Positions 7,018-58,007 of a DNA stretch of 64,000 nt are shown here, piece after piece. Each line of letters starts with the position of its first letter. Position 1 is the first letter of the stretch. Source of the DNA: an uncultured Candidatus Poseidoniales archaeon (lineage in GTDB: Archaea; Thermoplasmatota; Poseidoniia; Poseidoniales; Poseidoniaceae); assembly GCA_905182715.1 (NCBI GenBank), contig CAJJCP010000003.1, forward strand, positions 67,580-131,579, in the 5' to 3' direction. A model generated the notes under the pieces. It was not told where the DNA came from and did not search any database. It saw only the letters and a program-made list of their open reading frames with translations. The translations under genes were made by a program, and so were the position numbers.

Positions 7018-7101
7018 CGTAAAATCACTTTACCAATTCCTTCATATCAGTGTGCGAAAGTGGTAGGAATATGAAAGAACACAAAACACTGGCTGTTTTC
7101 C

Positions 7102-9435
7102 TTGTTTCCCTCTTCCTCGTGTCCGGCTGTTTGGGCATGGTTGACTCGGAAGTGGAAATTCCAGACGTCACTCTTCCAGATGATTGGTCAACCGTCGTTC
7201 AACGCAGCGTTGCAAGCCCTCAATTATCTCAGTTTGCTGATTGTGATGATTTGGAAACATCTCTTAAAGTCCTCAATAGCCGAAGAATACAGAATTCAAC
7301 TCTTACAGGCTGTCGAAGAAGAATACTACTACGGAGGCGGAATGTGGGCTGAAGACGACATGGTGATGGCCGAGGGTGCTGAAAGTGACTCAAGCACCTC
7401 TTCCGCACCGACTACAAAACGCCAAGAAGGTACTGACTTTTCAGGAACCAACAACCAAGAGCAAGGTGTCGATGAAGCAGATTTCGTCAAAACCGATGGT
7501 TATTTCATCTACTTTTTGAACGGCAACAATCTTGAGATCTTTGGCGTACCTGAATTTGGTGAACTGACTCACCTTTCTACTACAAGAATCGAAGGCACAC
7601 CTCAAGCAATGATGCTTGATGGCGACCGACTGGTCGTCATTTCCACCGTCTCTTCTTGGAACATTCCGCAAACAGATGCGCTCTCTTCTGTGATGGGATG
7701 GGATAACGGCTACGGTTCATGGCGCACCTCTTCACTCACCAAGTTCACGGTTTTGGACATTACAAACCGTTCTTTGCCAGCGGATGGAAAGGAATTGTAT
7801 CTTGAAGGATATTACATGACTGCACGAGAAGTTAACGCAACTGTTCGGACCGTAACACATGCTTGGCTTGACATTCCAGGTGTACAAAGCTGGTTAGACC
7901 TCCCTTCAGGCTACTGGGCCCTCGATTATGACGACCCAATCCGCCGAGAAGTTCGAGAGAAAGTTGCGTACCAGACCATGCTTGAAAATCAAATCTCACT
8001 TGATGCACTTGCTCTTGAAGACATCCTTCCGAAGGTGTATGAGCGCTCCAATGGGCAAATTACAGTCCATACCATGGATGATGAACAATGCGCAGACTTC
8101 GTTGCTCCAGAAGACGGGTTCAATCGAGGCTTCAACAGTATTTTCACCTTTGATTTATCTTCCGAGGACTTTGAATTCCAAGCCGATCACATCGTGGGGA
8201 ACTACCCTCTCGTCTACGCTTCTGCTGACGTCCTTATCTTGACGGAAAATGCGTGGGACTGGTGGTTGTTCTGGGGCAATGATGGCATGGCTGAAGCAAC
8301 CAACATCCACACGTTTGATATTTCACAAGCAGGCGATACAACCTATACTGGCTCAGGGCGCGTGAACGGAACAATTCTCAACCAATTCTCTTTATCCGAA
8401 CATGAAGGAATTGTTCGAGTCGCCGTCACCTCGGGGCAATGGGCCCGTTGGTGGATGGAGAATCCTGAGCCAATGAGTTCCAGCGTTGTTACCTTTACCC
8501 GCAGCGTCGATGTTCAAACCGACCAGCAAATCATCATTGAAGTTGGCCGAGTTGACAATATTGCACCCGAAGAACGAATTTGGAGCGCGCGCTTTGATGG
8601 AGACCGTTGCTATCTCGTCACGTTCCGCCAAATCGACCCTTTGTGGGTTATCGACATGTCAGATGAGACCAACCCAACAATACTTGGAGAGCTCGAAGTG
8701 CCAGGGGTCTCAACGTACATCCACCCGCTTTCTCGAGATCACTTGTTGACCATTGGAATGGGCCCAGGAGAGGCTGATGGAACAGGACTTGATTGGTCAA
8801 GCACCCGTCTTTCTTTGTTCAACATCACCGACCCGACCGCTCCAGCAGTTGACGACCACCTTACACTCACGCCTGTTGCGGACCCTGCAGATACTGCATG
8901 GATGTGGTCGTACTCCGAAGCCTCGTATGAGCACAAAGCATTCCAATATTGGGCACCCAAAGGACTGTTGGCCATTCCTCTTTCAACCTACAGATACCAA
9001 AGCTGGACAGACTCAAACGGCGGATATCATTGGAATTATCAATATGTTTCCAAGTTAATTCTGGTGAATGTTTCTGAAGACACGGGTAACCTTTCCGTGC
9101 ATGGAACAGTCGACCACTCTGACTTGTATGACCGCGATGACAACCAGAACTGGTGGAATGGCTTCAACATCCGCCGTTCAATCTTCATGGGTGATTTCGT
9201 CTATGCAATTTCATCAGCAGGCGTTACAGCGACGAACCTTACAACCATGGATGAAAGCGCAAGCGTAGAACTCGCTTATGAGAACCCATACAATACGTAT
9301 TACTACGACGTTGCAGTTGATTCTGATGCAGGGGAGAGCACAACAAGCGAGGGCGAATCTTCAAACTCTGATGGCGACGACAAAACGGATTCTTCTGACA
9401 CTGAAGGCGCCGGTTCGGAACCAGATCAAACTTAA
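7102..9435 (+). CDS. Secreted beta-propeller-domain protein (PF09826-like); its signal peptide lies in a different frame (7071-7270)
   Basis: 777-aa ORF with GTNNQEQGVDEADFVKTDGYFIY, typical of the 'beta propeller domain' family. The first ~55 tracked codons look off-frame. The overlapping ORF 7050-7352 supplies MKEHKTLAVFLVSLFLVSGC (ATG 7071). See the finding on the frameshift. Confidence 0.8.
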   Translation: MFPSSSCPAVWAWLTRKWKFQTSLFQMIGQPSFNAALQALNYLSLLIVMIWKHLLKSSIAEEYRIQLLQAVEEEYYYGGGMWAEDDMVMAEGAESDSSTSSAPTTKRQEGTDFSGTNNQEQGVDEADFVKTDGYFIYFLNGNNLEIFGVPEFGELTHLSTTRIEGTPQAMMLDGDRLVVISTVSSWNIPQTDALSSVMGWDNGYGSWRTSSLTKFTVLDITNRSLPADGKELYLEGYYMTAREVNATVRTVTHAWLDIPGVQSWLDLPSGYWALDYDDPIRREVREKVAYQTMLENQISLDALALEDILPKVYERSNGQITVHTMDDEQCADFVAPEDGFNRGFNSIFTFDLSSEDFEFQADHIVGNYPLVYASADVLILTENAWDWWLFWGNDGMAEATNIHTFDISQAGDTTYTGSGRVNGTILNQFSLSEHEGIVRVAVTSGQWARWWMENPEPMSSSVVTFTRSVDVQTDQQIIIEVGRVDNIAPEERIWSARFDGDRCYLVTFRQIDPLWVIDMSDETNPTILGELEVPGVSTYIHPLSRDHLLTIGMGPGEADGTGLDWSSTRLSLFNITDPTAPAVDDHLTLTPVADPADTAWMWSYSEASYEHKAFQYWAPKGLLAIPLSTYRYQSWTDSNGGYHWNYQYVSKLILVNVSEDTGNLSVHGTVDHSDLYDRDDNQNWWNGFNIRRSIFMGDFVYAISSAGVTATNLTTMDESASVELAYENPYNTYYYDVAVDSDAGESTTSEGESSNSDGDDKTDSSDTEGAGSEPDQT

Positions 9436-35221: not shown

Positions 35222-35841
35222 CCCTCGGTCTTCAACGAATATAAACTTCCAAGTCCGGGATAATTTGGTGACGGCACTAAATCATACACATACCATTCAA
35301 GGCGTTGTTCAGAAGTTTCATTGAAGATCAAATCATCTCGGTATTTGGTGTCGCTAAAATCCTCTTTAACAGCGATTGCGGTAACATTTTCACCAAGGAA
35401 AAAATCTGTCCGAGTAAATGATATGCTTGTCGAACCGTTTCGAACAGCACTCATTGAGAAAAGGTCGAGATACTGTGTCTCTTCGCTGGTAACATCAACA
35501 TTCACAGTGAACGTTTTTCCGTCTGCATTTAATTTTGATTGTACCGTGCCGTTCGACTGTTCAACAGAGCTCATTCCTCCAACCATGCACGGATATTCTT
35601 CCCCATCGACCTTTAAACTCAGTTGGACAGCATTCCAAGAAAGGTTTTCTCCACCATTTTCAAACGAGGCATTAACAAGAATATCCTGGGAATTGTCTGT
35701 TGATTCTCCCCCTTGGAGTAGAAGAACATTGTTCGTACCGAGATGTTGCTCGATGGAGATAATGTTGGCATAGAACCCCATTGAGATAACAAAGACAACA
35801 AAGAGTGAGAGGAGTTTAATCCGCCAGTCGACCTTCGCCAT
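35197..35841 (-). CDS. Hypothetical exported/anchored protein
   Basis: 214-aa ORF with signal-anchor IKLLSLFVVFVISMGFYANI and a beta-rich body. It probably continues into ORF 34919-35221; see the finding. Confidence 0.6.
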   Translation of the reverse strand: MAKVDWRIKLLSLFVVFVISMGFYANIISIEQHLGTNNVLLLQGGESTDNSQDILVNASFENGGENLSWNAVQLSLKVDGEEYPCMVGGMSSVEQSNGTVQSKLNADGKTFTVNVDVTSEETQYLDLFSMSAVRNGSTSISFTRTDFFLGENVTAIAVKEDFSDTKYRDDLIFNETSEQRLEWYVYDLVPSPNYPGLGSLYSLKTEGCFSKSSF

Positions 35842-43099: not shown

Positions 43100-45349
43100 A
43101 TGCTGTCAAAATCACACTTAGAAACCATTAGCCATCGCCAAAAACTCACCATGTCATTGACCATCATCATTTTGATGTTGACCAGCACAATGCTGGGCAT
43201 TGTACAGGACTTTAGTGCGGAAGAAACAAAGCCAACACTTCAATTCAGTGAAGGCGAAAGAATCACTTTAACCTCTGCCCAGTCTACTGAACAAGGCGGA
43301 CAAGGCTCATGGAATGGCGCTCAAGATGCATGGCAACTTGAAGACCACCCTGTTCTCTCGGACCTCATGTGGTCAGACCCAGGAGTTGCTGCTGGAATTA
43401 TTTCCGACGAAGCTGCAATAGCAGCTATTATGCCGTACTATTCGACACTCCTCGAAGAATCAAATAAAGACGATCACGACAATGATGGCGTCAGCGATCT
43501 TTATGATTTGGATGATGACAACGATGGAATTTATGACCTCCTCGAACGATTCGATGGATGTTACGGAACCGACCCATTCGACCATGACAACGACGGAATC
43601 CTCGATGCAGAGGACTGGGACGATGACAACGACGGAATTCTCGAAGGCCCAATTGATATCGAAGCACTTGAAGCACTCGGATTGGACCCACGAAACGTCA
43701 GTACAGACCGCCGCCTCGACCCAAGCGTCGTCCACCCTTGGACTGGACAACCAGTCGGAGCGTTCTACCTTGCAGACCAAAATCCAATGGACCACGATAA
43801 CGATGGCGTTACCGACGAAGACTCCGATGGCTCTGGCCCTGGAAGTTATGACGAAGACGATGACAACGACGCTCGTATTGACCAATTCAAGTGGCCATGC
43901 GACCTTGACAGCGACGGTGTCCAAGATTACTTCGATGCAGACGACGACAACGATGGCGTTGACGACATCACAGATTCCCACCCTTACGATGCATCTATAA
44001 CAACTACGCATGCCCAAGCAGGAAACCTTTACGATGTTGCAATTAACTGGGATTTCAATTCATACCGTGCGTATTCAGGCGGCATCGACTTCCTTACATG
44101 GGAATTAAACCGCGTCAATGCAGTAAACGCCCCTTCAGTCACATCAACATCTCCAAACGGCGTACCAGCATTTACTGCGATTGTAGATGGCGACCTCGAC
44201 GGCGACGGCATTCCAAACTTTATCGACCCCGATAACGATAATGACGACACACCAGACAGCTCCGATACCGATGACGACAACGACGGAATCCTTGACATGT
44301 CTGACCCTGATGATGACAACGACGGAATTCCTGACACATGTATGAATCTCGACGTCAACGGTGATATGCTGAATGATTTCACCCGAGCCAACTCCTCACC
44401 TTTCCAGACACCTGGTGGAGATACAGACGGTATTGCTGGAATTGATTGTGAAATGGACTATGACCAAGATTTAGACGATGACCGATTGCGACCATTCGAC
44501 CAGAATTACAATGCTGTCTATGATTGGCTCGACCCTGACATGGGCGGTACCCCCACACCAGATAACCTTGGAGACATTTCAGTGAGCGGGGATGCAAATA
44601 ATTTTGAATACGATTTAGATGACGACCAAATCACCAATGAAAACGACTCCTTCCCACTTGACAAGTCCTCGGATGTCGCTTCATGGAATTGCCCTACTAT
44701 AGCAAATCCAAATCCGGTAAACCCCGACTCACGCTGTAATACGCGCCGTGCTTCCTATTCTCAATTCAACGATTGGGATGGCGATGGAATCAACAACTGG
44801 ATTGACGTAGACGACGACAACGACGGAATCATCGATCCTCTTGACATCGATTGGGACTGTGATCTTGACAACGATGGCGACCTTCACGCTATCAACGGCG
44901 CACTCTATCGGGACGACGGACCAAACTCAGTTGACTCAGACATCGATGGAGACGGTCTTGAAAACGACATCGATTGGGATGATGACAACGACGGTATTTC
45001 TGATTACTACGATCCAGATGACGGAAATTGCGGTGTTGTTGATTATGACGCAAACGATAATTTTGCAAACCCATACTACCCTATTGCAGACGGTGGCACA
45101 CTCGATGGTAGCCAAGACAGCACACCTTACACAGACAACTCAACCGACCACTGGAATCTCGTCTTTTGGCACAATCCTTTCGCCGACGTTGTTCTTAACT
45201 ACAACGGCTATGATGCATACAACAACACCAGTTACGCCAGGGACAGTTCCAGAATACTACTGGTTCCTCTTTGCTCGCTGGTCACCTTACAACGGCGGAA
45301 ACGACTGGGATATCGACACGGACGGAGATTCTCTCTCCAACGGACTTGA
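43100..45349 (+). CDS. Giant surface protein, fragment 1 of 3 (signal anchor plus TSP3-like repeats)
   Basis: 749-aa ORF. Likely start is ATG 43151 (MSLTIIILMLTSTMLGIV). The body is dozens of D.D.DG..D loops. The last ~35 codons after ~45240 (SSRILLVPLCSLVTLQRRKRLGYRHGRRF) look out of frame. Confidence 0.8.
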   Translation: MLSKSHLETISHRQKLTMSLTIIILMLTSTMLGIVQDFSAEETKPTLQFSEGERITLTSAQSTEQGGQGSWNGAQDAWQLEDHPVLSDLMWSDPGVAAGIISDEAAIAAIMPYYSTLLEESNKDDHDNDGVSDLYDLDDDNDGIYDLLERFDGCYGTDPFDHDNDGILDAEDWDDDNDGILEGPIDIEALEALGLDPRNVSTDRRLDPSVVHPWTGQPVGAFYLADQNPMDHDNDGVTDEDSDGSGPGSYDEDDDNDARIDQFKWPCDLDSDGVQDYFDADDDNDGVDDITDSHPYDASITTTHAQAGNLYDVAINWDFNSYRAYSGGIDFLTWELNRVNAVNAPSVTSTSPNGVPAFTAIVDGDLDGDGIPNFIDPDNDNDDTPDSSDTDDDNDGILDMSDPDDDNDGIPDTCMNLDVNGDMLNDFTRANSSPFQTPGGDTDGIAGIDCEMDYDQDLDDDRLRPFDQNYNAVYDWLDPDMGGTPTPDNLGDISVSGDANNFEYDLDDDQITNENDSFPLDKSSDVASWNCPTIANPNPVNPDSRCNTRRASYSQFNDWDGDGINNWIDVDDDNDGIIDPLDIDWDCDLDNDGDLHAINGALYRDDGPNSVDSDIDGDGLENDIDWDDDNDGISDYYDPDDGNCGVVDYDANDNFANPYYPIADGGTLDGSQDSTPYTDNSTDHWNLVFWHNPFADVVLNYNGYDAYNNTSYARDSSRILLVPLCSLVTLQRRKRLGYRHGRRFSLQRT

Positions 45350-47975
45350 TATTGACCAAGATGCCGACGGAATGCCCGATTGGTGGGACCAAGACGAAGG
45401 TAACGACGGAATGCTCGATACCGATGACCTCAAGATGGGTGGGACCTTCAATATGTCTCAATGCGGTTGGTCTGCAGGAAATCTTGGTGGAGGCTTTGTT
45501 TGTGGATACAGCTATGCAATTTCTTACCACATGCCACTCAATGGAGTAAACGCTCAATTCGGCTCTCCATATTCTACTCGACCTGATGCCTTCATCGACC
45601 AAGGTGCTACACCTGGTGGCCCAAGCGGCAACTGGAGCTGCACCCCCGGTGCACAAGGCGGCTGTTATCACTATGATTTCGGCGGAGACGGTACAGTCGA
45701 ATCAGGTATTACTCACTTCCAAATGGTCAACAACCGAGATGCTTTCGTAACTTGGATTGGATTGGCAGTAGGAATTTGGCAATGGACTTCCGACAACGGA
45801 ATAGTTGCTGACTTCCCTGACGAACTCGGTGCAGATTTGATCAAAAACACAGTTGACGGCGACATTGATGGCGATTTCACGAATGCAACGATTGACCTCG
45901 ATGACGATTATGACTCGGTGTATGATTGGTATGACGTTGACGATGATAATGACGGCATATGGGATTTCTTCGAAATAGATGTCGATGATGACCTCGATAA
46001 CGATGCGAATCAAGAGAACTCCAATTTCTTCAGTGGAACAAATTGCGCTGATAACGATGACGACGGAAACGACGCAGATGTCGATGACGACGGCTATTTC
46101 CAAGCAGTTTGGGACCGAGGAATTCTTTCACAAGGTTTGATTCAACCAACACTCTATGACGTTGACAACGATAACGATGCCGTTCCTGACGCAGAAGACC
46201 CTGATGACGATAACAATGGGATCCTAGATTCTGTCCAAGAGGCACTACCAAATTGTTTCTGGGGCGAAGAACAATCTCCGTTTGACCATGATAACGATGG
46301 AATCGTAGATTGGGCGGATGACGATTGGGATGCAGATGGAATTTCCAACGACGTTGAATTGGCAATCAGCCTCGTTGCTGCTTTCGACCATGATAACGAC
46401 GGACAACGTGACGATATTGATACCGATGATGACCAAGATGGAATGCTTGATGATGATGAAGTCATACTCTGGCCTACACGCTTCAACCGAAACTCAACAA
46501 ATCCTTGGGACCACGATGACTTCGGAGATGGAGAAGGACTTGCAAACCCATTGGATGCAGGTACTGGCCCAGATGCAATCGACAATGATGACGACAACGA
46601 TACGCTTGTTGACGCCGATTTCGACCATCTTGAAGAAGGCGAAACTGGATTCCCTTGCTACAATGGAGGCGAATCAAGCGATTGGGACCATGACAACAAC
46701 TGTGTGCTTGATGAAGATGACAAAGCACCAACATACATCACGCTCAATTTACCTGATACTTTGTGGCTTGATGCACAATCCCCATCCATCTTCAGTGGGC
46801 ACGTCGATTGGGTAAATCCAGTCACTGGTGCCTTTGAGCCTGCAGTTGGCCTTCCAGTCCAAGTCCATATTGAATGGGCTGACAATGGAACACTCGCAGT
46901 TGAGACCATCAACGTCTTGACCTCTGTAGTTGGTAACTTCACAGTTGGCCAATTCCTCTACCCTGAAGATTTGACAGTGGGCGACAACACAACCTACAGA
47001 GTCTATGCAATTGTGACTGAAATGTTTGCATTCAACGGCAACGAATCTCAATCCTATTATTTGGGCGCTGAAGCAAACCTCACAGCTGACATTTACTTGG
47101 ATAGTTATTTCCGAAGCGATGAACAACCATTCTGGATCGACATGTGGTCGTATTATACCGCTGATTTACAACGTGGTATCTTCGACAACTTAGTTCCAAG
47201 TGTGCCATTCACTTTCTCCGTTCGCGGAGGAATCTTTGGCAACTACACTCACCCGACGAACTTTACTGGACTTGGTGGAAACGGTTACCGAGCAGGAAGT
47301 AATGGATTTGTTTCTGTCACATTCGTTCAAGATATCGGCATCAATGGTTTATGGAAACAAATTCAATGGAACTCAACTCGAGATAATGGAGTTGGCCAAG
47401 TTCCTGGTGGATATGAAGAAGTTGCCTGGGATGAACAATCCAAAGAACTCAAACCACTTCTTGACGGAACCGGTGCGATTATTTCGTATGATTACACCAA
47501 TACGAGCCTCCCCGCCGGCGATTACGAAGTGACGACGAGCGTGCAACCAGACCTTGCGCCTGAGTGGCCATTCCCTTACCTCCATGGCGACAGTACCGAG
47601 CCTCAAGCAATCCGTGTCATGCATCGCATGAACATCGAAGCGCAAATGATTGTCGAGGGTACAAATCCAGTTTTCTGGTATAATTCCTCAATCAACAATG
47701 GCGACGGTACCTTCGGTAACTGGGCAACGTTATTCCATTCCGAAGCACTGAATGGTGCAGGTTTGAATTTCGATGATTACAAGAAGGCACACGTGCAAGC
47801 AAAGAATTGGGATGGAAACGCACTCAGCCTTACTGGACCAGAAACTCAATTGCGCAACTTCGTCTCAACGAATTCAACACATTGGTTCATCACTTTGGTG
47901 AACGGTGGAGACGGTGACTTACCACCTTGTGGCGCAGTCGACCCAGACAGACCCAGACAGTTTGGTCCGGTGTGA
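44841..47975 (+). CDS. Giant surface protein, fragment 2 of 3
   Basis: 1044 aa as tracked. The first ~130 codons (Thr/Met/Ile-rich) are the off-frame reading of fragment 1. Believable sequence starts near 45240 (GTVPEYYWFLFARWSPYNGGNDWDIDTDGD). TSP3-like loops give way to beta-rich modules. Confidence 0.75.
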   Translation: MTSIGTVILTTMATFTLSTAHSIGTTDQTQLTQTSMETVLKTTSIGMMTTTVFLITTIQMTEIAVLLIMTQTIILQTHTTLLQTVAHSMVAKTAHLTQTTQPTTGISSFGTILSPTLFLTTTAMMHTTTPVTPGTVPEYYWFLFARWSPYNGGNDWDIDTDGDSLSNGLDIDQDADGMPDWWDQDEGNDGMLDTDDLKMGGTFNMSQCGWSAGNLGGGFVCGYSYAISYHMPLNGVNAQFGSPYSTRPDAFIDQGATPGGPSGNWSCTPGAQGGCYHYDFGGDGTVESGITHFQMVNNRDAFVTWIGLAVGIWQWTSDNGIVADFPDELGADLIKNTVDGDIDGDFTNATIDLDDDYDSVYDWYDVDDDNDGIWDFFEIDVDDDLDNDANQENSNFFSGTNCADNDDDGNDADVDDDGYFQAVWDRGILSQGLIQPTLYDVDNDNDAVPDAEDPDDDNNGILDSVQEALPNCFWGEEQSPFDHDNDGIVDWADDDWDADGISNDVELAISLVAAFDHDNDGQRDDIDTDDDQDGMLDDDEVILWPTRFNRNSTNPWDHDDFGDGEGLANPLDAGTGPDAIDNDDDNDTLVDADFDHLEEGETGFPCYNGGESSDWDHDNNCVLDEDDKAPTYITLNLPDTLWLDAQSPSIFSGHVDWVNPVTGAFEPAVGLPVQVHIEWADNGTLAVETINVLTSVVGNFTVGQFLYPEDLTVGDNTTYRVYAIVTEMFAFNGNESQSYYLGAEANLTADIYLDSYFRSDEQPFWIDMWSYYTADLQRGIFDNLVPSVPFTFSVRGGIFGNYTHPTNFTGLGGNGYRAGSNGFVSVTFVQDIGINGLWKQIQWNSTRDNGVGQVPGGYEEVAWDEQSKELKPLLDGTGAIISYDYTNTSLPAGDYEVTTSVQPDLAPEWPFPYLHGDSTEPQAIRVMHRMNIEAQMIVEGTNPVFWYNSSINNGDGTFGNWATLFHSEALNGAGLNFDDYKKAHVQAKNWDGNALSLTGPETQLRNFVSTNSTHWFITLVNGGDGDLPPCGAVDPDRPRQFGPV

Positions 47976-50900
47976 AATCGTTCCTCAAATGAACACAGGT
48001 GACGCACTATGGGTTACAGGTTCAGTGACCAACCGAACAAATGTTCCTTGGGATGCAGACCCGATCGCACTTCAAGTTGACATCGACGGCAATGGTCAAT
48101 TCCTCGGCCAGCAAGAAACAGCCTACACGCAACGCCCGACAAAGGCCTGCCCAACATGTGCTGCTGAGTTTGAATACAACTGGTCTTGGTACAGCCAATA
48201 CGGTTCTGGAACCTATGGAATGCGTGTTGATTTCACCAATTCAGCGTATTACTTCACAGGTAACAGCTCCTCTCTTGCTGCAACAGGTGCTTACATCAAC
48301 GTCACAGTAGTTGGAACAACTGACTTCCAAACCACTTCAGTGCCTCGTTTGTATCGAAACACAAGTACAACGATTCAAGCGAAACTGGTTGACAACTCTC
48401 TCCAACCCGTTCGTAACGTACCAGTGAACTATACCTGGTCTGCGGATGGCCGTTCTGGGGTTAATTATACCGATGATAATGGCTTCTTCGAGATACCATT
48501 CAATATCTCTGCTGCCGATTCGTTAGGTGATTTCAGTTTACAATTCGAATTTGCAGGAACCCCATTGCTCAAGGGCAACACCATGGTTCAGCAGGTTTGG
48601 GTTGTTTCACGAACTTACATTTCCATTGTATCGACCGATCCCAATTTCCGTCAATCTGGAGATTTATGGTCCTTCACTGGACAAGTCACTGACGATAATA
48701 CGACGCAGGTACGTGATGCCGGAGGCGCTTCCTTAGATGGCGCATCCGCACCAAACGGCGGATTAGTCGATGTTATTTTCGAAGGAGTGGACTTCAATGG
48801 CGTTACACATCGCCAAATTGTTGCCACAGTTCGACCATCAGCAGGTTCAATCACGCTGCCAGATGTCCAACCCGATAAAGCTCACATGTGCTATTATGAC
48901 GGAAACGGAGACGGCATTTTGGACCGAGATATTAACCAAGATGGAATTCTTGACCGCTTCGAAGCCAGTGGAATGTTCAACGGACAGGCTGGATGTCTCC
49001 AAGCCGATATTGCCCCATTGAACGCTACTGCTCTGAAAGAAGACCCTGCGTCTTTCCTCCCAGACGGATTCGGGCCAGTGAATGTTATTCTACGGTTTGA
49101 AGAAACTTTACCAAACGAAGGTTGTGCACAACTTGAACCAGCCGCTCTGAGCATTCAAGGCGCGTGGGATTCTTGTCTTGGTGTGTCTGGAAACGACCAC
49201 TTCAGATTGAAGATGACCAACAATGCAAACGGATTCTCCTTTATTGGCCGAACCGCATTATCAGTTGATGATCAAATCGTCTACACGAGTGAAGTAAGTC
49301 CAATCACTGGCGAAGTTATTCCAAAGCCAATGATTGTTACAGGACAATTACAAGACGAGTTGGGTACGAATTTGACCAACCGTAAGATTCGTGTCAACTA
49401 CGAGATGGTGAACAGCCAATCAAGTCCAACATCATGTAATTCGGGAATGACTGACCTCGACGGATACTTCTCGATCGAATGTCCACTTTCTGATGTTTCT
49501 GCTGGAAAGGCAAAGGTCATCGTCACTTATTCGTCTTACGATAACAACGATGCTTACCGATACCAAAACGATACGTATGAAACCGAATTCGATGTCTTTT
49601 CGAACTCGACACTCGCTTTGAACGAAGTTGGACCATTCAAGTCCAGCGTCGAAACATGGACTGCACCAAACACGACTGAATACCCGGTGCTTTACCTCAA
49701 AGAATCGTTCCACGTCGATGCAAAACTGATGCAATCCAACGGCCAATATGTTGGTGGAAAGTGCTTGAATATCTATCTTGACCCTGAACAAAACATCCGC
49801 CCAATTTCAACCATCCGCACCAGCGAAATCGATGGAACAGTTGAGTGGTTCAGTGGCGACCCAAGTCAAAACCCAACGCTACGAGGGGTCGAAACAACCG
49901 GCGGTAAATTGGAAGGTTTCCGTACACTGCGTGTTGCCTTTGAACCCGACCTCAATGTCCCAGGTGGTTGCGATAAGGATTCATCGAATGTCTTGAATGG
50001 CTCGCACATCGATCAACTTGTTTTGGTACGCTCTCGAATTGACTTGCAAGTGAAGCAAACATGGAGCCACACAGGCGATAATGGATTGGACAATGATGAC
50101 GCAGTCATTGGTTCGATTGCTCTCTTGCGTGACCGACTCGATCTTGCTGTAGAAAACGAAGAAATCTGGTTTGTCCGCCAATATTGGTCTGATGAACTCA
50201 GTGAATGGATTGTTGAAGGAACGAATAAATCGCGAACGAACGAGCAAGGTATTGCCGACTTCGAATGGGCCTTTGGTGGTCAAACATGTGACGGTGTCCC
50301 ATGTTCAGGCCAATGGAGAATCATTGCGTATTACCCTGGTTCAACGTACTTCGAAGAATCTTTAGACAATGTAACGCATGAAGTTACTTGGATGAAGGCT
50401 AATCCGATTCAAGCTGATGCAGGGTTCTTCACTCCAGCCAAGACCATGTCGTTCGTACTGGTTGCAATGGCATTACTCATTGCTGGAGCGATTTACTATC
50501 AACGAGCCCAAGCCCGACGTCAAGTCCAAGCACTCAAGGGTATTTTGACCGACACGATGATGCAACTTGAAGCCAGTAACGAATACATTGCAGCAATTTT
50601 CGAATGCTACAAGAATTTGGTCAAGCACTTCAAACGCTATGGCTTTATGAAGAAGGTTTACGAAACCACTCGTGAATTCGAATCAGCTGTTCGTACTGCA
50701 TTCAACATGGTTCCTTCTGACCAACTTGACCTCTTCCTCTCAGTATTCGAAGAAGCACGTTATTCAGATCACAACATCGATGAAAGCCACCGTGACAAGG
50801 CATTGACTACCTTGGATGCGATTGCTCGTTCACTCACCGTTGCCCTCGGCGAAGGTGGCATGGTTGAACGCAAGGAGTTGGTTAATCTGTATGACAAGCA

Positions 50901-50988
50901 AACAAAGGCTGGCGAATTCGTTGCAGCTGATGGCTCAGTTCGTCAAGCAGGAATCGTTGAAGGCGAAGGCACAGATTTCAAACTTTGA
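47905..50988 (+). CDS. Giant surface protein, fragment 3 of 3 (Ig/prealbumin-like modules, TM anchor, DUF4129-like cytoplasmic tail)
   Basis: 1027-aa ORF with no signal peptide of its own. Repeated modules have the form V.Y.....G..TD..G.F.I. TM helix is MSFVLVAMALLIAGAIYY. The tail (YETTREFESAV...LSVFEEARYSDHNIDE) matches the DUF4129 T.rE...aRY pattern as I remember it. Confidence 0.8.
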   Translation: METVTYHLVAQSTQTDPDSLVRCEIVPQMNTGDALWVTGSVTNRTNVPWDADPIALQVDIDGNGQFLGQQETAYTQRPTKACPTCAAEFEYNWSWYSQYGSGTYGMRVDFTNSAYYFTGNSSSLAATGAYINVTVVGTTDFQTTSVPRLYRNTSTTIQAKLVDNSLQPVRNVPVNYTWSADGRSGVNYTDDNGFFEIPFNISAADSLGDFSLQFEFAGTPLLKGNTMVQQVWVVSRTYISIVSTDPNFRQSGDLWSFTGQVTDDNTTQVRDAGGASLDGASAPNGGLVDVIFEGVDFNGVTHRQIVATVRPSAGSITLPDVQPDKAHMCYYDGNGDGILDRDINQDGILDRFEASGMFNGQAGCLQADIAPLNATALKEDPASFLPDGFGPVNVILRFEETLPNEGCAQLEPAALSIQGAWDSCLGVSGNDHFRLKMTNNANGFSFIGRTALSVDDQIVYTSEVSPITGEVIPKPMIVTGQLQDELGTNLTNRKIRVNYEMVNSQSSPTSCNSGMTDLDGYFSIECPLSDVSAGKAKVIVTYSSYDNNDAYRYQNDTYETEFDVFSNSTLALNEVGPFKSSVETWTAPNTTEYPVLYLKESFHVDAKLMQSNGQYVGGKCLNIYLDPEQNIRPISTIRTSEIDGTVEWFSGDPSQNPTLRGVETTGGKLEGFRTLRVAFEPDLNVPGGCDKDSSNVLNGSHIDQLVLVRSRIDLQVKQTWSHTGDNGLDNDDAVIGSIALLRDRLDLAVENEEIWFVRQYWSDELSEWIVEGTNKSRTNEQGIADFEWAFGGQTCDGVPCSGQWRIIAYYPGSTYFEESLDNVTHEVTWMKANPIQADAGFFTPAKTMSFVLVAMALLIAGAIYYQRAQARRQVQALKGILTDTMMQLEASNEYIAAIFECYKNLVKHFKRYGFMKKVYETTREFESAVRTAFNMVPSDQLDLFLSVFEEARYSDHNIDESHRDKALTTLDAIARSLTVALGEGGMVERKELVNLYDKQTKAGEFVAADGSVRQAGIVEGEGTDFKL
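47941..47960. repeat. Perfect 10-bp tandem duplication acccagacag/acccagacag
   Basis: Read directly at 47941-47950 and 47951-47960. It sits exactly at the frame change between ORF 44841-47975 and ORF 47905-50988. Confidence 0.95.
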
Positions 50989-51049
50989 AATTCCTGAACC
51001 ATACCGATTCGCCTTAACCTTCAAGGAGCGAGTGTGCTGTGGCTTGTCC

Positions 51050-51493
51050 ATGGAAGACTGGAAGCAACTCATCGGCGAAGCAATGCAAATTGAGACTACA
51101 GATACAATTGCAGCATTCAAGATTTACGAACGTGCAGTTTTTGCTGGCCTCACAACGGCTCAGAATTTACTGGATGATGCGGAAGCAGCCCTCATCATTG
51201 AAGCCATCTATGGCGTTTTAGTCGCCTATTCGCAAACTGTTATGCTTCGTATGAAAGCTGAAGATCCAGAAATTGGCGGCGTCGACCATGCATTCCGTGC
51301 AGGTCAAGCCTATGGCGTATCATGCGTCCTCAACCATCTCATCGACAAACTCACAGACATCACAGGCGGAACCGAATTGGGTGCACTTGACGATTTCTCC
51401 GATACACTCCATGACGAGATTATCATCCAAGGTCGCGCCGCAGGACTCACCGTTGAATTGCTCGATGCAAAGGGCGAGATTCTCTACGAGTGA
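51050..51493 (+). CDS. Hypothetical cytoplasmic helical protein
   Basis: I prefer in-frame ATG 51050 (MEDWKQLIGEAM) of ORF 50816-51493, because the upstream part overlaps the giant gene's 3' end. No family recognised. Confidence 0.5.
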   Translation: MEDWKQLIGEAMQIETTDTIAAFKIYERAVFAGLTTAQNLLDDAEAALIIEAIYGVLVAYSQTVMLRMKAEDPEIGGVDHAFRAGQAYGVSCVLNHLIDKLTDITGGTELGALDDFSDTLHDEIIIQGRAAGLTVELLDAKGEILYE

Positions 51494-51644
51494 ACTTTTT
51501 CCGAAGATTTATGGCGACCGCCAGAAACTGTCCCCGAATCAAGAGTTTCGGTGCACTGCGACGCGAATGACACGGCGCCCGCGTCGGTGCATTGATAATG
51601 GGATGGCCGGTCGGCGAATTGCTTCAAAGCATCGAGGGAGTCAA

Positions 51645-52010
51645 ATGAGTAATCCGATACGTAAGACAAACGCAAGATTGGTTGATGTAATCAGCCAGTT
51701 GAAAGCCCAGTCTCGCGACACCGGTGCCGCTGTTTGGCGAGATGTGGCCATGCGACTCTCCAAGAGTCGCAAGAATTGGGCACAGCCGAACTTGAGCCGC
51801 GTGAGTCGCTACGCCCCAGAGGGTGCAACCATCCTCGTACCAGGCAAGCTACTCGGCTCAGGTGAACTGTCCGCAAACCACACGATCGCCGCCTACAGTG
51901 TCAGCAATGGTGCACGTGAGAAAATAGAAGCCGCCGGTGGTCGAGTTATGACCTACGGCGAGCTGATGAACGAAAATCCATCTGGAACGGGGGTTGTTAT
52001 CCTTGGATGA
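51645..52010 (+). CDS. rpl18e: 50S ribosomal protein L18e
   Basis: Internal ATG 51645 of ORF 51273-52010 gives MSNPIRKTNARLVDVI...AVWRDVA...VPGKLLGSGEL, a typical ~120-aa L18e. It is preceded by gagggag. Confidence 0.9.
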   Translation: MSNPIRKTNARLVDVISQLKAQSRDTGAAVWRDVAMRLSKSRKNWAQPNLSRVSRYAPEGATILVPGKLLGSGELSANHTIAAYSVSNGAREKIEAAGGRVMTYGELMNENPSGTGVVILG

Positions 52011-52488: not shown

Positions 52489-52922
52489 TGGCTCGTAAAA
52501 AGCAAAAGTCAGTACAATCCTCTGGTAAGCGTAAGACTGCAGTTGCCCGTGCTTCACTTAAAGCAGGTAAAGGCAGAGTTCGTGTTAACAGTTCACCAAT
52601 CGAAATTCTACAACCGTCTCTTGCACGCCGCAAGTCAATGGAACCATTGATTATTGCAGACGCAATGAACCGATTGAGCAAGGTTGACATTAGCATCACC
52701 ACTCTTGGTGGAGGAATAATGGGTCAAACTGACGCTATTCGAACCGCAATCGCTCGTGGCCTTGTTCTTTACAACGGTGGCGCAGAAGGTATCGATGAAG
52801 AACTTCGAGAAGAATACCTTCGTTTCGACCGTAGCCTTTTGGTTAACGATCCACGACGCAAGGAAGCCAAGCACCAACTTGGACGTGGTGCTCGTCGCAA
52901 GAAGCAAAAGTCCTATCGATGA
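52485..52922 (+). CDS. rps9: 30S ribosomal protein S9
   Basis: 145-aa ORF with GKRKTAVARA, GGGIMGQTDAIR.AIARGL and the C-terminal ...RRKKQKSYR. Confidence 0.95.
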   Translation: MMARKKQKSVQSSGKRKTAVARASLKAGKGRVRVNSSPIEILQPSLARRKSMEPLIIADAMNRLSKVDISITTLGGGIMGQTDAIRTAIARGLVLYNGGAEGIDEELREEYLRFDRSLLVNDPRRKEAKHQLGRGARRKKQKSYR

Positions 52923-52928
52923 GGTGAG

Positions 52929-53314: not shown

Positions 53315-55846
53315 ATGCGAACTGTTCGGGCACTGTGTTTGACCCTTCTCCTCCTGCTGACTCCACTGTCTCTTCTTGCAACACCTGCAACGGCTTCAGA
53401 TACTTCAGTAAGCGCCGATACAACATGGTCGGGGGCTGTTGTCCTCACCGGAAACGTCACCGTCATGAACGGCTCAACGCTCACGCTTTCTCCAGGTACA
53501 ACGGTCGATGGCGGCGATGGGTATTGGATTCGAGTTGATGGAACACTCCTTGCATCTCAAACCGACTTCTTCTCCTCTCAAGTACCACTTACCGGCGGCT
53601 CACATGGAGCTGGTCTATGGACTGGAATTTACATTGCCGCCAAAGGCCACGCGGTTTTGGATGAGGTAACAATCCAGAATGCGAAAACTGCACTCAAGGT
53701 GGAAGGTCAACTTTCAGCCTACAAAATCACCATCGAAGATGCATATATCGGTGTCAATGTGTTCGGTTCGGCAAATATTGAATCGCTTACAGCACAACAC
53801 ATCGATTATGAAGTTCTTCGAAATTCTGGAAATCTAAATCTTTCAACAGGCACATTCACTGATATTGCCGGCGGTCTTTGGTCGACAGGCATGAGCACTG
53901 TTGATACGGTGACCATTTCCCAAGCAGGGACAGGTTTGCGTTCGACAAGCGGTACACTCTCTGCAACAGGCATTGGATTCATCGATACAACCGTTGCAAT
54001 TGCTAGCCAGCAAGGAGCATCTACTACGGTTCAAAGCATAACTGCCAATAACGTCGCTTTGCTTATCGATGCCGCAGACAGTGATGATTTAACCGTCTCG
54101 AATGGTGCAGTTTCAGGACATCGCCTTCTTTTAGCGAACGGAGCGAGTTCCTTTTCAATCAATGATATCGAATTTGAAGGAAACCCATCTGAATCACTAC
54201 CTGTAGTGGACCAAAGATGTACGGGCACCTGTAGTTGGGATGGCATTGAAGTTTCCAATGTAACCAACGGCTTCTTCCTTTCAGGTTCTGGTAACCATTC
54301 AATATCTGGGCTCGATCTTTCTGCATCAGAGCGAGGGATTGAAGGAACAGGAATGGGACATATAAGTCTCGAATTCATCAATGTAACAGCCGGAACAAAA
54401 GGCATAGAGTTCCGCGACCCTGATAGTAGTCTGAATGAAGTTTCAGTTGAAATGACATCGACCACATCGACCGCTTACGACCTTCTCGATGGCCATCACC
54501 AATGGACTTCTGTTGGAGCGTCAAAAACATATTCTGCCCAAGACACAACCTCAATTGGCCTTACTGCATGGTATGCAACCATCGAATCAACTTCTTTCTC
54601 ATCACTTCATTTTGGTAACGGCATACAGGCAAACCATGCCGAAATATCTGGCAGCTCGTTTTCAATTCAAGATGGAAAAGGCATCGGGATTCAATTAGAA
54701 CGCAGTTCACTCATCGTTGATACATTGAATACTCGCGCATACCCTGATGGCGTTGTTCTCGACAAATCTTCAGATCTCCACGTTTCCGATTGGACCGCAG
54801 CAACTCATACGACACCATTGTCCATCAGCACCGCTTCAAACGCCATCATTCGAAACTTCCAGCCTCAAAACACTCCAACCTCTTCCTCCGATGCTCTAGG
54901 AGATGGCACACTCATCTATGGCGGTTCAACAACAGCGAACATTGCAGTATCGTCTGCCTCGTATCTTGAAGAAACTCCGGTAACCTTCACCGACTTAGCT
55001 GGAAACCCAGTTGAAGCAACAATCAGCGTCCATGGTTTTTCAATTCAAAGCGACGTGAACGGAGGAGCAACCCTTCCACTCCTCAACAGTGGGTCTTCAG
55101 TTGATGTCACCCTTGCCGGTGCTGGTGTACGCGTCATACTGTATGGCTCCCAAATGGGGCAATCAGTCCAAGTACCAGTCATTCCACAAGGCGATTGGGT
55201 TATTTCAACAGGTCAATTTGTATTCCTCGGTCCTCGACCTGATGGATTGCCACATACAATGTCTGGCGACCTTACAATCTCCACTGGGGCAGGTTTAGAA
55301 TTGTCTGATACCTCTCTGGTTTTACCTGCTGATGGTAGCGCCGAGATTCAAGGTTCAGGTGAATTGACCGGTAGTGGCTCATCTCTTGTTTCGAACAGTC
55401 TTTCACTTGGTTTTGATTCAGTGCTCACGCAATCAGATGGAGGTCAAGGAATGACCATTGCCTCTAACCTTACATGGGCTTGTCAAACAACACGTAGCGT
55501 CTCAAACATTGACATTCTAGGTTCTTTGATGCTTCAGCCCGGATGCCCAGTTGAGATGCTTGGAGGAAGTGTTGGAGGAACGGTCACAGCACTCACCAGT
55601 GCTGAATTGACGATTCTCTCTTCTCTTCAACTCACTGTTCTCGACAAAGGCGAACCTGTTGCAGGTGCATTCATTTCGATTGATGGAGCAGTTACTTCAA
55701 CCGATGTGAATGGAGAAGTTTCGACCACAGCAACCGCACGACACGTCGATGATGATTCTGAAACGGTCGGCGGCATCAAAAACATTAATCTTCAAATTGG
55801 ATCATTCATGGATTTCGTAACCTGGGATTCCATCGACTTCGTTTGA
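53315..55846 (+). CDS. Exported parallel beta-helix-like repeat protein
   Basis: 843-aa ORF. Signal peptide is MRTVRALCLTLLLLLTPLSLLATPATA. Long Gly/Ser/Thr/Asn-rich short-strand repeats follow (W.G.V.L.G.V.V..GSTLT..PGT.V). No C-terminal anchor. Confidence 0.8.
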   Translation: MRTVRALCLTLLLLLTPLSLLATPATASDTSVSADTTWSGAVVLTGNVTVMNGSTLTLSPGTTVDGGDGYWIRVDGTLLASQTDFFSSQVPLTGGSHGAGLWTGIYIAAKGHAVLDEVTIQNAKTALKVEGQLSAYKITIEDAYIGVNVFGSANIESLTAQHIDYEVLRNSGNLNLSTGTFTDIAGGLWSTGMSTVDTVTISQAGTGLRSTSGTLSATGIGFIDTTVAIASQQGASTTVQSITANNVALLIDAADSDDLTVSNGAVSGHRLLLANGASSFSINDIEFEGNPSESLPVVDQRCTGTCSWDGIEVSNVTNGFFLSGSGNHSISGLDLSASERGIEGTGMGHISLEFINVTAGTKGIEFRDPDSSLNEVSVEMTSTTSTAYDLLDGHHQWTSVGASKTYSAQDTTSIGLTAWYATIESTSFSSLHFGNGIQANHAEISGSSFSIQDGKGIGIQLERSSLIVDTLNTRAYPDGVVLDKSSDLHVSDWTAATHTTPLSISTASNAIIRNFQPQNTPTSSSDALGDGTLIYGGSTTANIAVSSASYLEETPVTFTDLAGNPVEATISVHGFSIQSDVNGGATLPLLNSGSSVDVTLAGAGVRVILYGSQMGQSVQVPVIPQGDWVISTGQFVFLGPRPDGLPHTMSGDLTISTGAGLELSDTSLVLPADGSAEIQGSGELTGSGSSLVSNSLSLGFDSVLTQSDGGQGMTIASNLTWACQTTRSVSNIDILGSLMLQPGCPVEMLGGSVGGTVTALTSAELTILSSLQLTVLDKGEPVAGAFISIDGAVTSTDVNGEVSTTATARHVDDDSETVGGIKNINLQIGSFMDFVTWDSIDFV

Positions 55847-55850
55847 GCAC

Positions 55851-58007
55851 ATGTTCATGGCTTCGACAATTACGCCGGGTTCTCTTTCCAACTGGCTTGT
55901 ACTCGAAGCCCAATGGAGTCCATACTTCCTCGATGGCGATCTCGATGTTGAAGCATTAGGGACACTTACCATCGATGATGGCGTTTCACTGCGTATTTCC
56001 GAAGGAAGTCAAATCAGTGTTGATGGCCGTATTGATGCAGGAGCAGCAACCCTCTCCTCAACAGGCTCGGGCTCTCGTTGGGGTGGTTTTGTTATGGGTG
56101 GCGCCAGTTCCACTCTCGATTTGTCCTTGACCAATATCGTTGAAGCCTCACCGGCTTTGACAGTTGACAGTCAAGGAACCTTCATTGGCGACGGGATTAC
56201 CATGGCGCGTTCTTCAGGGGCTGACCCTTTAATTGTCATCAACAGTAACAGTAATGCGAACATTACCCTCAAAAATTCACACATGTATGACGCTGGTAAC
56301 GGGTGTATCAAGGCATTCCCATCGTCGAGTCACTTGACACTCTCTGAAGTTACACTCGAATCATGTAACGGTATTGGCGTCTGGGCTCGACAAATATCTC
56401 TGAACTTCGACACGGTTGTTGTTGGGGATGAAGTATCAACTGGATTTGATTTCACTGCAGTTACCGGAGTCTTGTCGAACATTGATGCATCCTTGTTCAA
56501 TGGCAGTGGTCACATTCTTGCTTTAGATTCAATCGATGGGGACTTTACGGTTTCTCACTTGAATGGAACCGTTGGAGCAGGTGCAGGGATCACCGGTTCT
56601 AACAGCCGCGACATCCAGATGAACCATATCCAGCTCACCGGCTCACCGGGACTTGATTTTGACAACTCAGCAGGAATGTTACACGATGTTATACTGAACG
56701 GCCCTGGTTCGGGAACTGCGCTCATAAGCCATCACGGACGCTCTTCGGACTCTCTGATCATTGAAGACCTCGTTGCCTTTTCTTATTCAGTGGGTATTGA
56801 TTTACACGGAGATGAAGGCGATGGTGCAATTGCTCCATTGATTCTACGTAACCCAGACATCATCACTTCGACCGTTCTTGCATCAGAGAATTATCCAGCC
56901 CGAATCGAAGGTGGTATCATGTATGGAGTCATTTCTGCATCGGGGATGATTACCATTGACCTCATCGACACATCCACTGAAAATCCTTCAATGTATGATG
57001 GTGCAGAATTGCGAACTTGGAAGACATTTACGCTCAGTGCTCAACTGAACGGGGTCCTTCAGGATGTTGGATTTTCAATACACACGCTTGGGCTTGAGCC
57101 TGCCTTTTCAACATCGGTGTTTGGTAATTCGCTGCTTGTAGAAATCCCGGTAGCATTCGCAGGTAACCAAACCAGTTCAACACTCGTGTCGTTCAACGTC
57201 ACCACCCAAGCCAGTGGTTTACCGGATACCGTTCATGATACGAATTATTCAGAGACAACTTCATTACTCATCGAAATCGCATTAGTTTCAAACAATCCAC
57301 CAACTGTGGAAATCATTCAACCATACTCTGGTGAGCGTGTTATGGAGTCTGTTCACCTCCTCGCAGCAGCAGAATATTCTGATGATTTAGATGCTGTACA
57401 GGATTTAACTTTGGTATGGATTATTACTGATTCCGCCGGAGTTGAAGTGATGCGTGGTCCAAATGAACCACAATACAACATCACGGATTTACAATTTGGA
57501 TTGTATGTTCTTGAATTACGAGTGACTGATACGTTGGGCGCTACTTCAAGTGATGCGGTTGATTTTGAAGTCACAGAACTTGACAGTGATGGAGATTGGA
57601 CCAATACCTGTATATTCACTTTGAACACCAGTGTGTGGTTTGATAAAATCAATGGCTATTCATGCGGACCAGACAGTGAAGATACCGACGATGATAACGA
57701 CGGCCATCCCGACACTCGAGACGCATGGCCTGTTGATCCATGTGCGTGGCAAGATACCGATAATGACGGCCTGCCGAATAATGTCAATTGCCCAGAAGGA
57801 AAAACGACCTATCTTGTTGCAGACCCAGACGATGATAACGACGGCATCCTCGACATATTGGAAGGTGAAACAGCAACTGATAGCGGTGACTTTTCCACTG
57901 GGACACTCTTGCTCATCGTTCTCATTCTTGCGGGCATTGGCCTGTTTATGGCAAGAGTAAAGCGCGGTGGCGGAGAACTTGGCCCGATTAACGAGAAACA
58001 TCTGTGA
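55851..58007 (+). CDS. Beta-helix-like repeat protein with Ig-like region, TSP3-like loops and C-terminal TM anchor; lacks its own signal peptide
   Basis: 718-aa ORF starting 4 nt after the previous stop in another frame. The opening module (WSPYFLDGDLDV.ALGTLTIDDGVSLRISEGSQISVDG) resembles the start of 53315-55846. The end reads DTDDDNDGHPD...DTDNDGLPN...DPDDDNDGILD, then LLLIVLILAGIGLFMARVKR. Confidence 0.75.
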   Translation: MFMASTITPGSLSNWLVLEAQWSPYFLDGDLDVEALGTLTIDDGVSLRISEGSQISVDGRIDAGAATLSSTGSGSRWGGFVMGGASSTLDLSLTNIVEASPALTVDSQGTFIGDGITMARSSGADPLIVINSNSNANITLKNSHMYDAGNGCIKAFPSSSHLTLSEVTLESCNGIGVWARQISLNFDTVVVGDEVSTGFDFTAVTGVLSNIDASLFNGSGHILALDSIDGDFTVSHLNGTVGAGAGITGSNSRDIQMNHIQLTGSPGLDFDNSAGMLHDVILNGPGSGTALISHHGRSSDSLIIEDLVAFSYSVGIDLHGDEGDGAIAPLILRNPDIITSTVLASENYPARIEGGIMYGVISASGMITIDLIDTSTENPSMYDGAELRTWKTFTLSAQLNGVLQDVGFSIHTLGLEPAFSTSVFGNSLLVEIPVAFAGNQTSSTLVSFNVTTQASGLPDTVHDTNYSETTSLLIEIALVSNNPPTVEIIQPYSGERVMESVHLLAAAEYSDDLDAVQDLTLVWIITDSAGVEVMRGPNEPQYNITDLQFGLYVLELRVTDTLGATSSDAVDFEVTELDSDGDWTNTCIFTLNTSVWFDKINGYSCGPDSEDTDDDNDGHPDTRDAWPVDPCAWQDTDNDGLPNNVNCPEGKTTYLVADPDDDNDGILDILEGETATDSGDFSTGTLLLIVLILAGIGLFMARVKRGGGELGPINEKHL

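Follow-up and report, generated by a model that had tools for sequence, protein, structure and literature searches.

The frameshift at 47.94 kb is, with a probability of roughly 85%, a single-base indel error made when the consensus of a mixed-strain metagenome assembly was built or polished, and would then reflect neither a duplication nor any property of the organism. Comparison of the window (the whole 64-kb stretch of DNA analysed here) with related contigs directly shows a one-base difference, intact orthologs, many sister insertions and a pattern in which two alleles stand in tandem; from these we infer that the cause was an assembly or polishing step. The preliminary description had read the site as a 10-bp tandem duplication that splits a giant surface-protein gene, and had itself named an assembly or polishing artefact as one outcome that would refute it. 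Judged from sequence comparison, that outcome is the most likely one.

A one-base difference at the 10-mer repeat

The repeat is present as had been described. Window positions 47940-47960 read GACCCAGACA GACCCAGACA G, which Tandem Repeats Finder reports with a period of 10, 2.1 copies and a 100% match. The two reading frames also agree with the earlier account, with the frame-0 ORF (44841-47975) ending in ...GAVDPDRPRQFGPV and a stop, and the frame-1 ORF (47905-50988) reading ...TQTDPDSLVRCEIVPQ across the same site.

The difference from related sequences is much smaller than a repeat unit. The site is 27 nt long in all 16 related contigs that cover it and 28 nt long in the window. These contigs belong to separate assemblies, which include SPAdes, MEGAHIT, Logan, TARA and JGI assemblies and one GTDB MAG, and some of those with the 27-nt allele are 99.5% identical to the window over 8.4 kb. 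The 27 nt read GAC CAG/CCG/CCA ACA GAC CCA GAC AGT, or D-Q/P-T-D-P-D-S in translation, so that the relatives carry an in-frame 9+10 near-repeat, GACCAGACA followed by GACCCAGACA, coding for D-Q/P-T-D-P-D. Alleles of 18, 28 or 38 nt occur in none of the 16 (0/16), and the supposed 10-bp duplication reduces to a single base. A pattern scan of genome and metagenome collections that allowed 1-4 variable bases at the site, and that could not match an 18-nt allele, returned 27-nt alleles only; the absence of an 18-nt allele is therefore a statement about the fetched relatives. Neither truncated product, of 749 aa or of 843 aa, turned up in exact look-ups of public records.

Removing one copy of the 10-mer by hand, the repair put forward earlier, does yield GAVDPDSLVRCE and a single open frame to 50988, but this state is absent from all relatives. 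None of them has the 18-nt junction or the peptide GAVDPDSLVR, and all carry GAVD(Q/P)TDPDSLVR. The right repair is the removal of one base, which gives GAVDQTDPDSLVRCE and not GAVDPDSLVRCE. Alignment of the orthologous loci, which had been suggested as a check, shows no copy-number variation and single ORFs across the junction.

Which base is the extra one depends on the comparator. Against the A-type sequence GACCAGACA it is one C of CCC (47942-47944), against the C-type sequence GACCCGACA it is A47945, and against the B-type sequence GACCCAACG it is G47946. A homopolymer error from CC to CCC was considered as a whole account of the site and set aside, as it fits the A-type comparison only, the extra base being an A (C-type) or a G (B-type) otherwise.

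For reference, the 28-nt allele of the window can be written as the 28-mer GTCGACCCAGACAGACCCAGACAGTTTG, and the one-copy 18-nt junction, if slipped, would be GTCGACCCAGACAGTTTG. Peptides across the site would be GAVDQTDPDSLVR or GAVDPTDPDSLVR for an intact allele and GAVDPDSLVR for a slipped one. An Rfam scan returned tRNAs only, with no RNA element near the 47.94-kb site.

Table 1. Coordinates of the gene fragments, the repeat and the private extra bases in the window.
Feature	Position	Strand	Remarks
Two private extra bases	7060..7264	+	7060 and 7264
Private extra base near the 3' end of a 122-aa DUF4190 gene	34876	+	Stop codon lost
Two private extra bases breaking a 306-aa gene	35236..35275	-	35236 and 35275; gene intact in relatives
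Fragment 1 of the giant gene	43100..45349	+	ATG start, N-terminal hydrophobic segment, then Asp-rich DxDxDG repeats
Fragment 2 (earlier 'upstream ORF')	44841..47975	+	True coding about 45219-47943
First extra base, +1 shift	45217..45218	+	From comparison with A-, B- and C-type relatives
Fragment 3 (earlier 'downstream ORF')	47905..50988	+	True coding about 47945-50988
Perfect tandem 10-mer GACCCAGACA, x2.1	47940..47960	+	Window sequence, Tandem Repeats Finder
Second extra base, +1 shift	47942..47946	+	Placement varies with comparator
Neighbouring 1563-aa surface-protein gene	53315..58007	+	Signal peptide, PKD-like domain, C-terminal anchor

One surface-protein gene in three fragments

The view that both ORFs are pieces of one gene holds, since the orthologs are single 2628-aa ORFs that span the junction. 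The window copy is, however, cut in three and not in two, by a further +1 insertion at 45217/8, where the window has GC-A-T-ACA; the relatives read GCA ACA (A-type) or GCT ACA (B-type and most of the C-type). What had been taken for about 900 upstream codons is an internal fragment only, and the start codon lies on a third piece. This first fragment begins where the 2628-aa gene called in contigs L008-L015 begins; its true coding sequence ends at about 45217, and the remainder is out-of-frame read-through to a stop. Correspondingly, the first ~125 codons of the second fragment are an out-of-frame overlap with the first. The third fragment holds the Ig-like domains, together with a transmembrane helix towards the C-terminus and a DUF4129 domain on the cytoplasmic side.

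Once 45218 and 47944 are deleted, the ORF extends to 2628 aa, and its translation aligns end to end and gap-free with 2628-aa orthologs, at 98.5% and 97.0% amino acid identity. The repaired frames contain zero stops and zero indels (98.5% amino acid against 96.5% nucleotide identity), and so show no gene decay. Frameshifts in an otherwise undecayed gene fit an artefact and a very recent event alike. As judged from the repaired translation, the real gene is a 2628-codon ORF for a predicted membrane-anchored, Asp-rich surface protein of the calcium-binding-repeat type that carries Ig-like domains and has DUF4129 as its cytoplasmic tail. The match to DUF4129 (Pfam PF13559) reaches 25.4 bits, the cut-off being 24.8, and the transmembrane segment falls at about residues 2447-2467. 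The N-terminal 1738 aa gave no Pfam match even at E = 1; the assignment of Asp-rich repeats comes from visible DxDxDG motifs and from TSP_3 and TSP3_bac matches in neighbouring paralogous genes.

The second break bears directly on the proposal that the 10-mer pair is an on/off switch, a slipped-strand contingency locus at which one copy is gained or lost in replication to turn a costly adhesin off or on. The proposal has its attractions: removing one copy in silico restores the local frame at the price of a protein 3 aa shorter, the gene encodes a kind of surface protein that has been associated with adhesion in this order, and a perfect repeat of this sort would rarely arise by chance (the window has one non-simple perfect tandem 10-mer, where a first-order Markov null predicts 0.07). 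Yet there are only two repeat copies, copy number varies in none of the 16 relatives (all 27 nt, with the 18-nt allele absent among those fetched), and the intact state lies one base from the window and not one repeat unit. Furthermore, the gene has its other, independent break at 45217/8, a site free of repeats, and this break would persist after reversion; therefore switching at 47.94 kb could not restore expression. We consider such a switch very unlikely. A variant in which the 28-nt allele is real in one strain, the insertion into the 9+10 near-repeat having created a 10-mer pair from which slipping out one unit would recover the frame with a 3-aa deletion, would make the site a newborn reversible off-switch of an adhesin-like gene in an uncultured planktonic archaeon; this, too, appears very improbable.

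Extra bases elsewhere in the window

The two insertions in the giant gene belong to a larger set. The window contains at least eight private single-base insertions, seven of which are listed in Table 1 and the eighth of which lies at 55830-55833, and no private single-base deletion was found in its coding DNA. If insertions and deletions were equally likely, eight of eight insertions would have P = 0.004. Five of the window's roughly 42-55 genes are broken, and removing one extra base each time returns the broken genes to exactly the length found in relatives. As the 47.94-kb base has at least seven counterparts in the window, the frameshift there is most likely an assembly error and not a biological switch. 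The earlier argument that base-calling artefacts do not typically take the form of a 3n+1 duplication loses its footing here, given a true difference of one base among these private +1 insertions. A majority of the extra bases lie outside homopolymers, so they are not of the classic nanopore or 454 error type. Two contigs of the same population with names in the style of long-read assemblers, L021 and L027, carry private 1-nt indels of their own.

The extra base at 55830-55833 leaves the neighbouring surface-protein gene as two ORFs, 53315-55846 and 55851-58007; at this site the window has TTCCATCGAC where A-, C- and B-type relatives have TTCCACGAC, TTCCTCGAC and TTCATCGAC, respectively. The 306-aa gene is whole in L017, L029 and one further assembly. 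The base at 7264 severs the N-terminal hydrophobic, signal-like segment of a 787-aa Beta_propel gene, which it interrupts at about codon 65, and the one at 7060 is intergenic, about 10 nt 5' of the ATG at 7071. Two overlapping ORF pairs were also considered as frameshifts and rejected. Pair 15374/16488 has unrelated Pfam domains, and pair 24996/25615 has uninformative Pfam matches; both look like separate genes because the gene calls of relatives keep them separate.

These insertions could instead be real and very recent, having inactivated the surface-protein gene and several others in one strain that the assembly renders faithfully. The frameshifts do stand in the sequence, and the lack of decay suits a very recent event. 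In natural strains, true inactivation strikes surface-protein genes more often than any others, which counts against an artefact; three of the eight insertions lie in the two largest surface-protein genes, common targets of loss, and this region, with 15% polymorphic sites, is the most strain-variable stretch examined in detail. Against this, eight independent insertions and zero deletions would be required within 64 kb, breaking five genes. Prokaryotic indel spectra are deletion-biased. The broken set includes the DUF4190 and beta-propeller proteins, which are whole in every relative, and the allele at 47.94 kb is found in no other public assembly. Seven of the eight insertions are in coding DNA, a share that matches the 89% of the window that is coding, so they bear no trace of selection. 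Together with the origin of the inserted bases described below, this makes real inactivation unlikely; if it were true, it would amount to a minor strain-level gene inactivation.

Programmed +1 ribosomal frameshifting at each site, by which full-length protein would still be made, accounts for the uniform +1 direction of the shifts, and a shift at CCC-AGA (47951-47956, read by eye) would yield a protein of normal length. However, the shift sites occur in no ortholog, every one of which is a single in-frame 2628-aa ORF, and near-identical relatives (99.5% at the nucleotide level) are in frame, whereas programmed shifts are as a rule conserved among close relatives. The sites have no obvious motif in common, and the 7060 insertion is intergenic. 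This reading is likewise very unlikely, indeed close to negligible.

Two alleles side by side

At all three sites with diverse comparators (3/3), the extra base is the one that another strain carries as its alternative SNP allele, and it stands beside the resident allele: GC[A][T]ACA, GACC[C][A]GACA and TTCC[A][T]CGAC. The chance of this pattern is 0.082 per random insertion and 5.5e-4 for three of three; the test covers 3 of the 8 insertions, the comparators at the other five all carrying one haplotype. The window haplotype changes along its length. At 43-46 kb its nearest match is B-type; at 47-56.5 kb it agrees ~100% with A-type, and past that point ~100% with B-type. Within the A-type stretch, all of the listed mismatches to A-type contigs match the B-type allele, the C-type allele or both, and no private alleles were found from 45809 to 56747. 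The contig is thus probably a mosaic of strains.

An assembly error of the following kind would produce these features. The contig appears to combine reads or contigs from several strains of a single marine Poseidoniales (Marine Group II) archaeon that occur together, and the consensus step would at strain-variable positions sometimes have retained both alleles side by side. At 47.94 kb, the C of a CCG allele and the A of a CAG allele would both have been kept, giving one base more. Placed within the older in-frame GACCAGACA and GACCCAGACA (Asp-x-Thr-Asp-Pro-Asp), this added base would make both units identical by chance, and hence a perfect 10-mer pair.

The case carries a caution, as a striking out-of-frame perfect repeat in a giant adhesin-like gene would be the chance by-product of one stray base. 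Anyone who annotates the contig, counts its pseudogenes or uses it to compare pangenomes should first make single-base corrections in at least five genes. For specialists, the only reading of interest, if true, would be the reversible switch, which is unlikely.

Comparison with known systems

Phase-variable surface-protein genes driven by slipped-strand mispairing are known from the adhesins of Neisseria and Haemophilus. The window resembles these contingency genes in having a short tandem repeat within a surface-protein coding region, where a one-unit change would alter the reading frame. Unlike them, it has two repeat copies only and no copy-number polymorphism in the population, its intact allele is not another copy number, and a second, repeat-free frameshift is present.

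The window also resembles the consensus indel artefacts of collapsed haplotypes or mixed strains in long-read or merged assemblies. When alleles that differ at closely spaced sites, or that contain internal repeats, are collapsed into a single long-read consensus, indel errors and apparent frameshifts are reported to result, as described for a diploid trypanosome genome (PMC8445201). As in that case, frameshifts in the window occur where alleles differ or where short internal repeats blur read alignment, removal of the indels returns ORFs to their expected length, and many genes are hit along one assembly. The present case differs in that the alleles would come from mixed strains of a marine metagenome and not from two homologous chromosomes, and in that the artefact is deduced from comparison with 16 other assemblies and not from reads.

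Finally, homologs of 2154-2628 aa that bear the labels of Euryarchaeota, Thalassarchaeaceae or Poseidoniaceae DUF4129 proteins are collinear with the repaired protein, which is an adhesin-like member of the giant DUF4129 surface-protein family of Poseidoniales. Thrombospondin-like genes have been reported as widespread in Poseidoniales and linked to adhesion. Like the large, thrombospondin-type-3-like Asp-rich surface proteins of Ca. Poseidoniales (Marine Group II), the repaired protein combines DxDxDG repeats, Ig-like domains, a transmembrane anchor and a DUF4129 tail, and nothing substantive sets it apart from them except the two extra bases in the window copy.

A single extra base at 47.94 kb

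The window reads GACCCAGACA GACCCAGACA G at 47940–47960, so the tandem 10-mer of the preliminary description is present, and Tandem Repeats Finder agrees (period 10, 2.1 copies, 100% match). It is the only perfect non-simple period-10 tandem repeat in the window (periods 8–12 scanned), whereas a first-order Markov null predicts ~0.07. As had also been stated, removing one 10-mer by hand joins the frame-0 and frame-1 ORFs.

The hand-joined C-terminal 1417 aa were used as a protein query, which returned 33 proteins, many of which (up to 2446 aa long) cover 100% of the query in one piece; the source names, on a few matches, were Euryarchaeota or Thalassarchaeaceae MAG proteins. Across the junction, the closest related proteins P0003 (~100% identical) and P0001 (98%) read GAVDQTDPDSLVRCE and GAVDPTDPDSLVRCE. 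Both have three residues more than the hand repair.

DNA for comparison at this site came from 16 related contigs of separate assemblies, obtained by exact-protein look-ups (P0003 and P0001 to L001 and L002; neighbouring ribosomal protein L18e to L008–L016; window 39008–39526 to L017), a genome-collection pattern scan (L003, a Ca. Poseidoniaceae MAG) and a metagenome-collection pattern scan (L004–L006). All of these relatives are one base shorter here than the window, and the 18-nt one-copy form was found in none of the 16. The event was therefore not a 10-bp duplication: a single base was inserted into an older near-repeat that was in frame, GACCAGACA followed by GACCCAGACA, and made its two units identical. 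The scan pattern admitted 1–4 variable bases, so that a 28-nt allele was detectable if present; none was found in the genome and metagenome collections, with 4/4 matches being 27 nt. Programmed +1 frameshifting fails on conservation, since no ortholog shares the shift site, and is the least credible account of the split.

Features of the broken genes and private insertions in the window (A-, B- and C-type, strain haplotypes of the relatives)
Feature	Position	Window	Relatives	Gene or remark
N-terminal piece	43100–45349			ATG start, N-terminal hydrophobic segment, Asp-rich repeats; tail is nonsense
Frame-0 ORF	44841–47975	ends ...GAVDPDRPRQFGPV*		
Frame-1 ORF	47905–50988	continues ...DPDSLVRCEIVPQ		
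Extra base	47.94 kb	GTCGACCCAGACAGACCCAGACAGT	A-type (L001, L004, L008, L010–L016) GTC GAC CAG ACA GAC CCA GAC AGT; C-type (L003, L005, L009) GTC GAC CCG ACA GAC CCA GAC AGT; B-type (L002, L006, L017) GTT GAC CCA ACG GAT CCA GAC AGT	
Extra base	45217/8	GCATACA	GCA-ACA or GC-TACA	2628-aa surface protein
Extra base	55830–3	TTCCATCGAC	TTCCACGAC, TTCCTCGAC or TTCATCGAC	1563-aa surface protein
Extra base	34876	one extra base	not in L017, L029	DUF4190 gene (122 aa), stop lost
Extra bases	35236 and 35275	two extra bases	not in L017, L029	306-aa gene
Extra base	7264	one extra base	not in six relatives	787-aa beta-propeller gene
Extra base	7060	one extra base	not in six relatives	no gene hit; just upstream of the 787-aa gene's ATG

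A giant gene in three pieces

The two ORFs meeting at 47.94 kb do belong to one gene, as proposed, but that gene lies in three pieces and the N-terminal one had been missed. ORF 44841–47975 begins with nonsense, and its true junction with the N-terminal piece is at 45217/8, where a +1 insertion (45217–45218) had been overlooked. The whole gene is a single 2628-aa ORF in L008–L015, and L016 holds 2269 aa of it, as far as the contig end. A slipped-strand on/off switch, which had been suggested for the repeat, fails on copy-number variation, which none of the 16 relatives shows, and on this additional break in the gene, where there is no repeat; we regard it as very improbable.

The 2628-aa product contains 13.9% Asp and visible DxDxDG repeats that may be read as thrombospondin-type-3-like calcium-binding repeats, a reading taken from the motif because a Pfam search found no match on the N-terminal 1738 aa. 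Also detected were weak Ig-like matches (Big_1, CarboxypepD_reg), a DUF4129 domain (25.4 bits vs a cut-off of 24.8) and, near residue 2447, a transmembrane helix.

Private insertions in other genes

The next large gene (53315–58007) is one 1563-aa ORF in every contig that contains it whole, and its product carries a signal peptide as well as a PKD-like domain and is anchored at the C terminus; in the window, a private extra base at 55830–55833 splits it into 843-aa and 718-aa ORFs. The beta-propeller, DUF4190 and 306-aa genes are likewise intact in all relatives and broken in the window. With the extra bases taken out, each broken ORF regains exactly the relatives' length, and the two repaired surface proteins align gap-free with their orthologs (98.5% and 97.0% aa identity for the 2628-aa protein, 97.8% for the 1563-aa protein).

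No window-private single-base deletion was found in coding DNA in comparison with the related contigs, and the few other 1-nt differences are polymorphic, occur in a single other contig, or sit in regions that are intergenic or compensated. With gain and loss of a base taken as equally likely, an eight-to-zero split in favour of insertions has P = 0.004. Of the eight, seven fall in coding DNA, matching the 89% coding fraction of the window, as expected if selection never saw them. The alternative, in which one strain truly acquired these insertions very recently, would require both an odd mutational spectrum and no selection, and is unlikely.

A mixed-strain signature

At the three sites with diverse comparators, both SNP alleles stand adjacent in the window (A+T, C+A and A+T), a pattern that a random inserted base would mimic with a probability of 0.082 per site and 5.5e-4 for all three. 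The window is closest to B-type at 43–46 kb (92–100% per 250-nt bin), ~100% A-type at 47.0–56.5 kb and ~100% B-type beyond 56.5 kb. The sharp switches at ~47000 and ~56500 arose either because the assembly is chimeric or because the strains recombined naturally. Within the A-type stretch, each listed mismatch to A-type contigs is a B-type allele, a C-type allele or both, and between 45809 and 56747 the window has no private allele. Two contigs of this population with long-read-assembler-style names, L021 (at 30553) and L027, carry private 1-nt indels of their own that split genes.

The best explanation, to which we assign a probability of roughly 0.85 from these comparisons, is that a consensus or polishing step in a mixed-strain metagenome assembly would have introduced the extra bases, such that the frameshift and repeat at 47.94 kb are probably not real features of the organism. 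In practice, users of the contig need to correct its indels and should handle it as a strain mosaic.

Other strain-variable segments

Within ORF 40769–42505, whose protein has TSP3_bac repeats, long in-frame arrays at 41294–41842 (GGTCAAGGACAA, x19; 18-nt unit, x8.6) code for a Gly/Gln-rich tract and differ in length by 6 or 9 nt among strains. In-frame 9-nt and 18-nt repeat-number polymorphisms at 27732 and 28595 are genuine tandem-repeat variation that keeps the frame, unlike the 47.94-kb site. At 38364–38396, beside tRNA-Cys (38252–38323), the window lacks a ~0.9-kb segment bearing a 263-aa gene that is present in L002, L017 and L029. A flexible island at 9497–10084 spans only ~590 nt in the window and ~2.7 kb in L031 and L033, which carry an 818-aa GDSL-lipase/GH43 gene in opposite orientations. 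In L032, this gene is called as fragments of 179, 55 and 335 aa, and an additional 729-aa collagen-repeat/DUF7151 gene lies farther on, past a 292-aa gene. ARAGORN called a tRNA-Pro (GGG) at 53149–53224, which is absent from the Rfam matches obtained at the gathering threshold; L001 differs from the window by one base at 53144, just upstream.

Comparison with known systems

The giant gene itself does not depart from its orthologs and belongs among the large DUF4129/Asp-rich surface proteins of Ca. Poseidoniales, an order in which thrombospondin-like genes are reportedly widespread and linked to adhesion (PMC6461757). In a collapsed diploid long-read assembly, nearby allelic variants together with internal repeats were described as leading to misaligned reads, indel errors and truncated ORFs (PMC8445201), an artefact of the same kind as that proposed here for the window.
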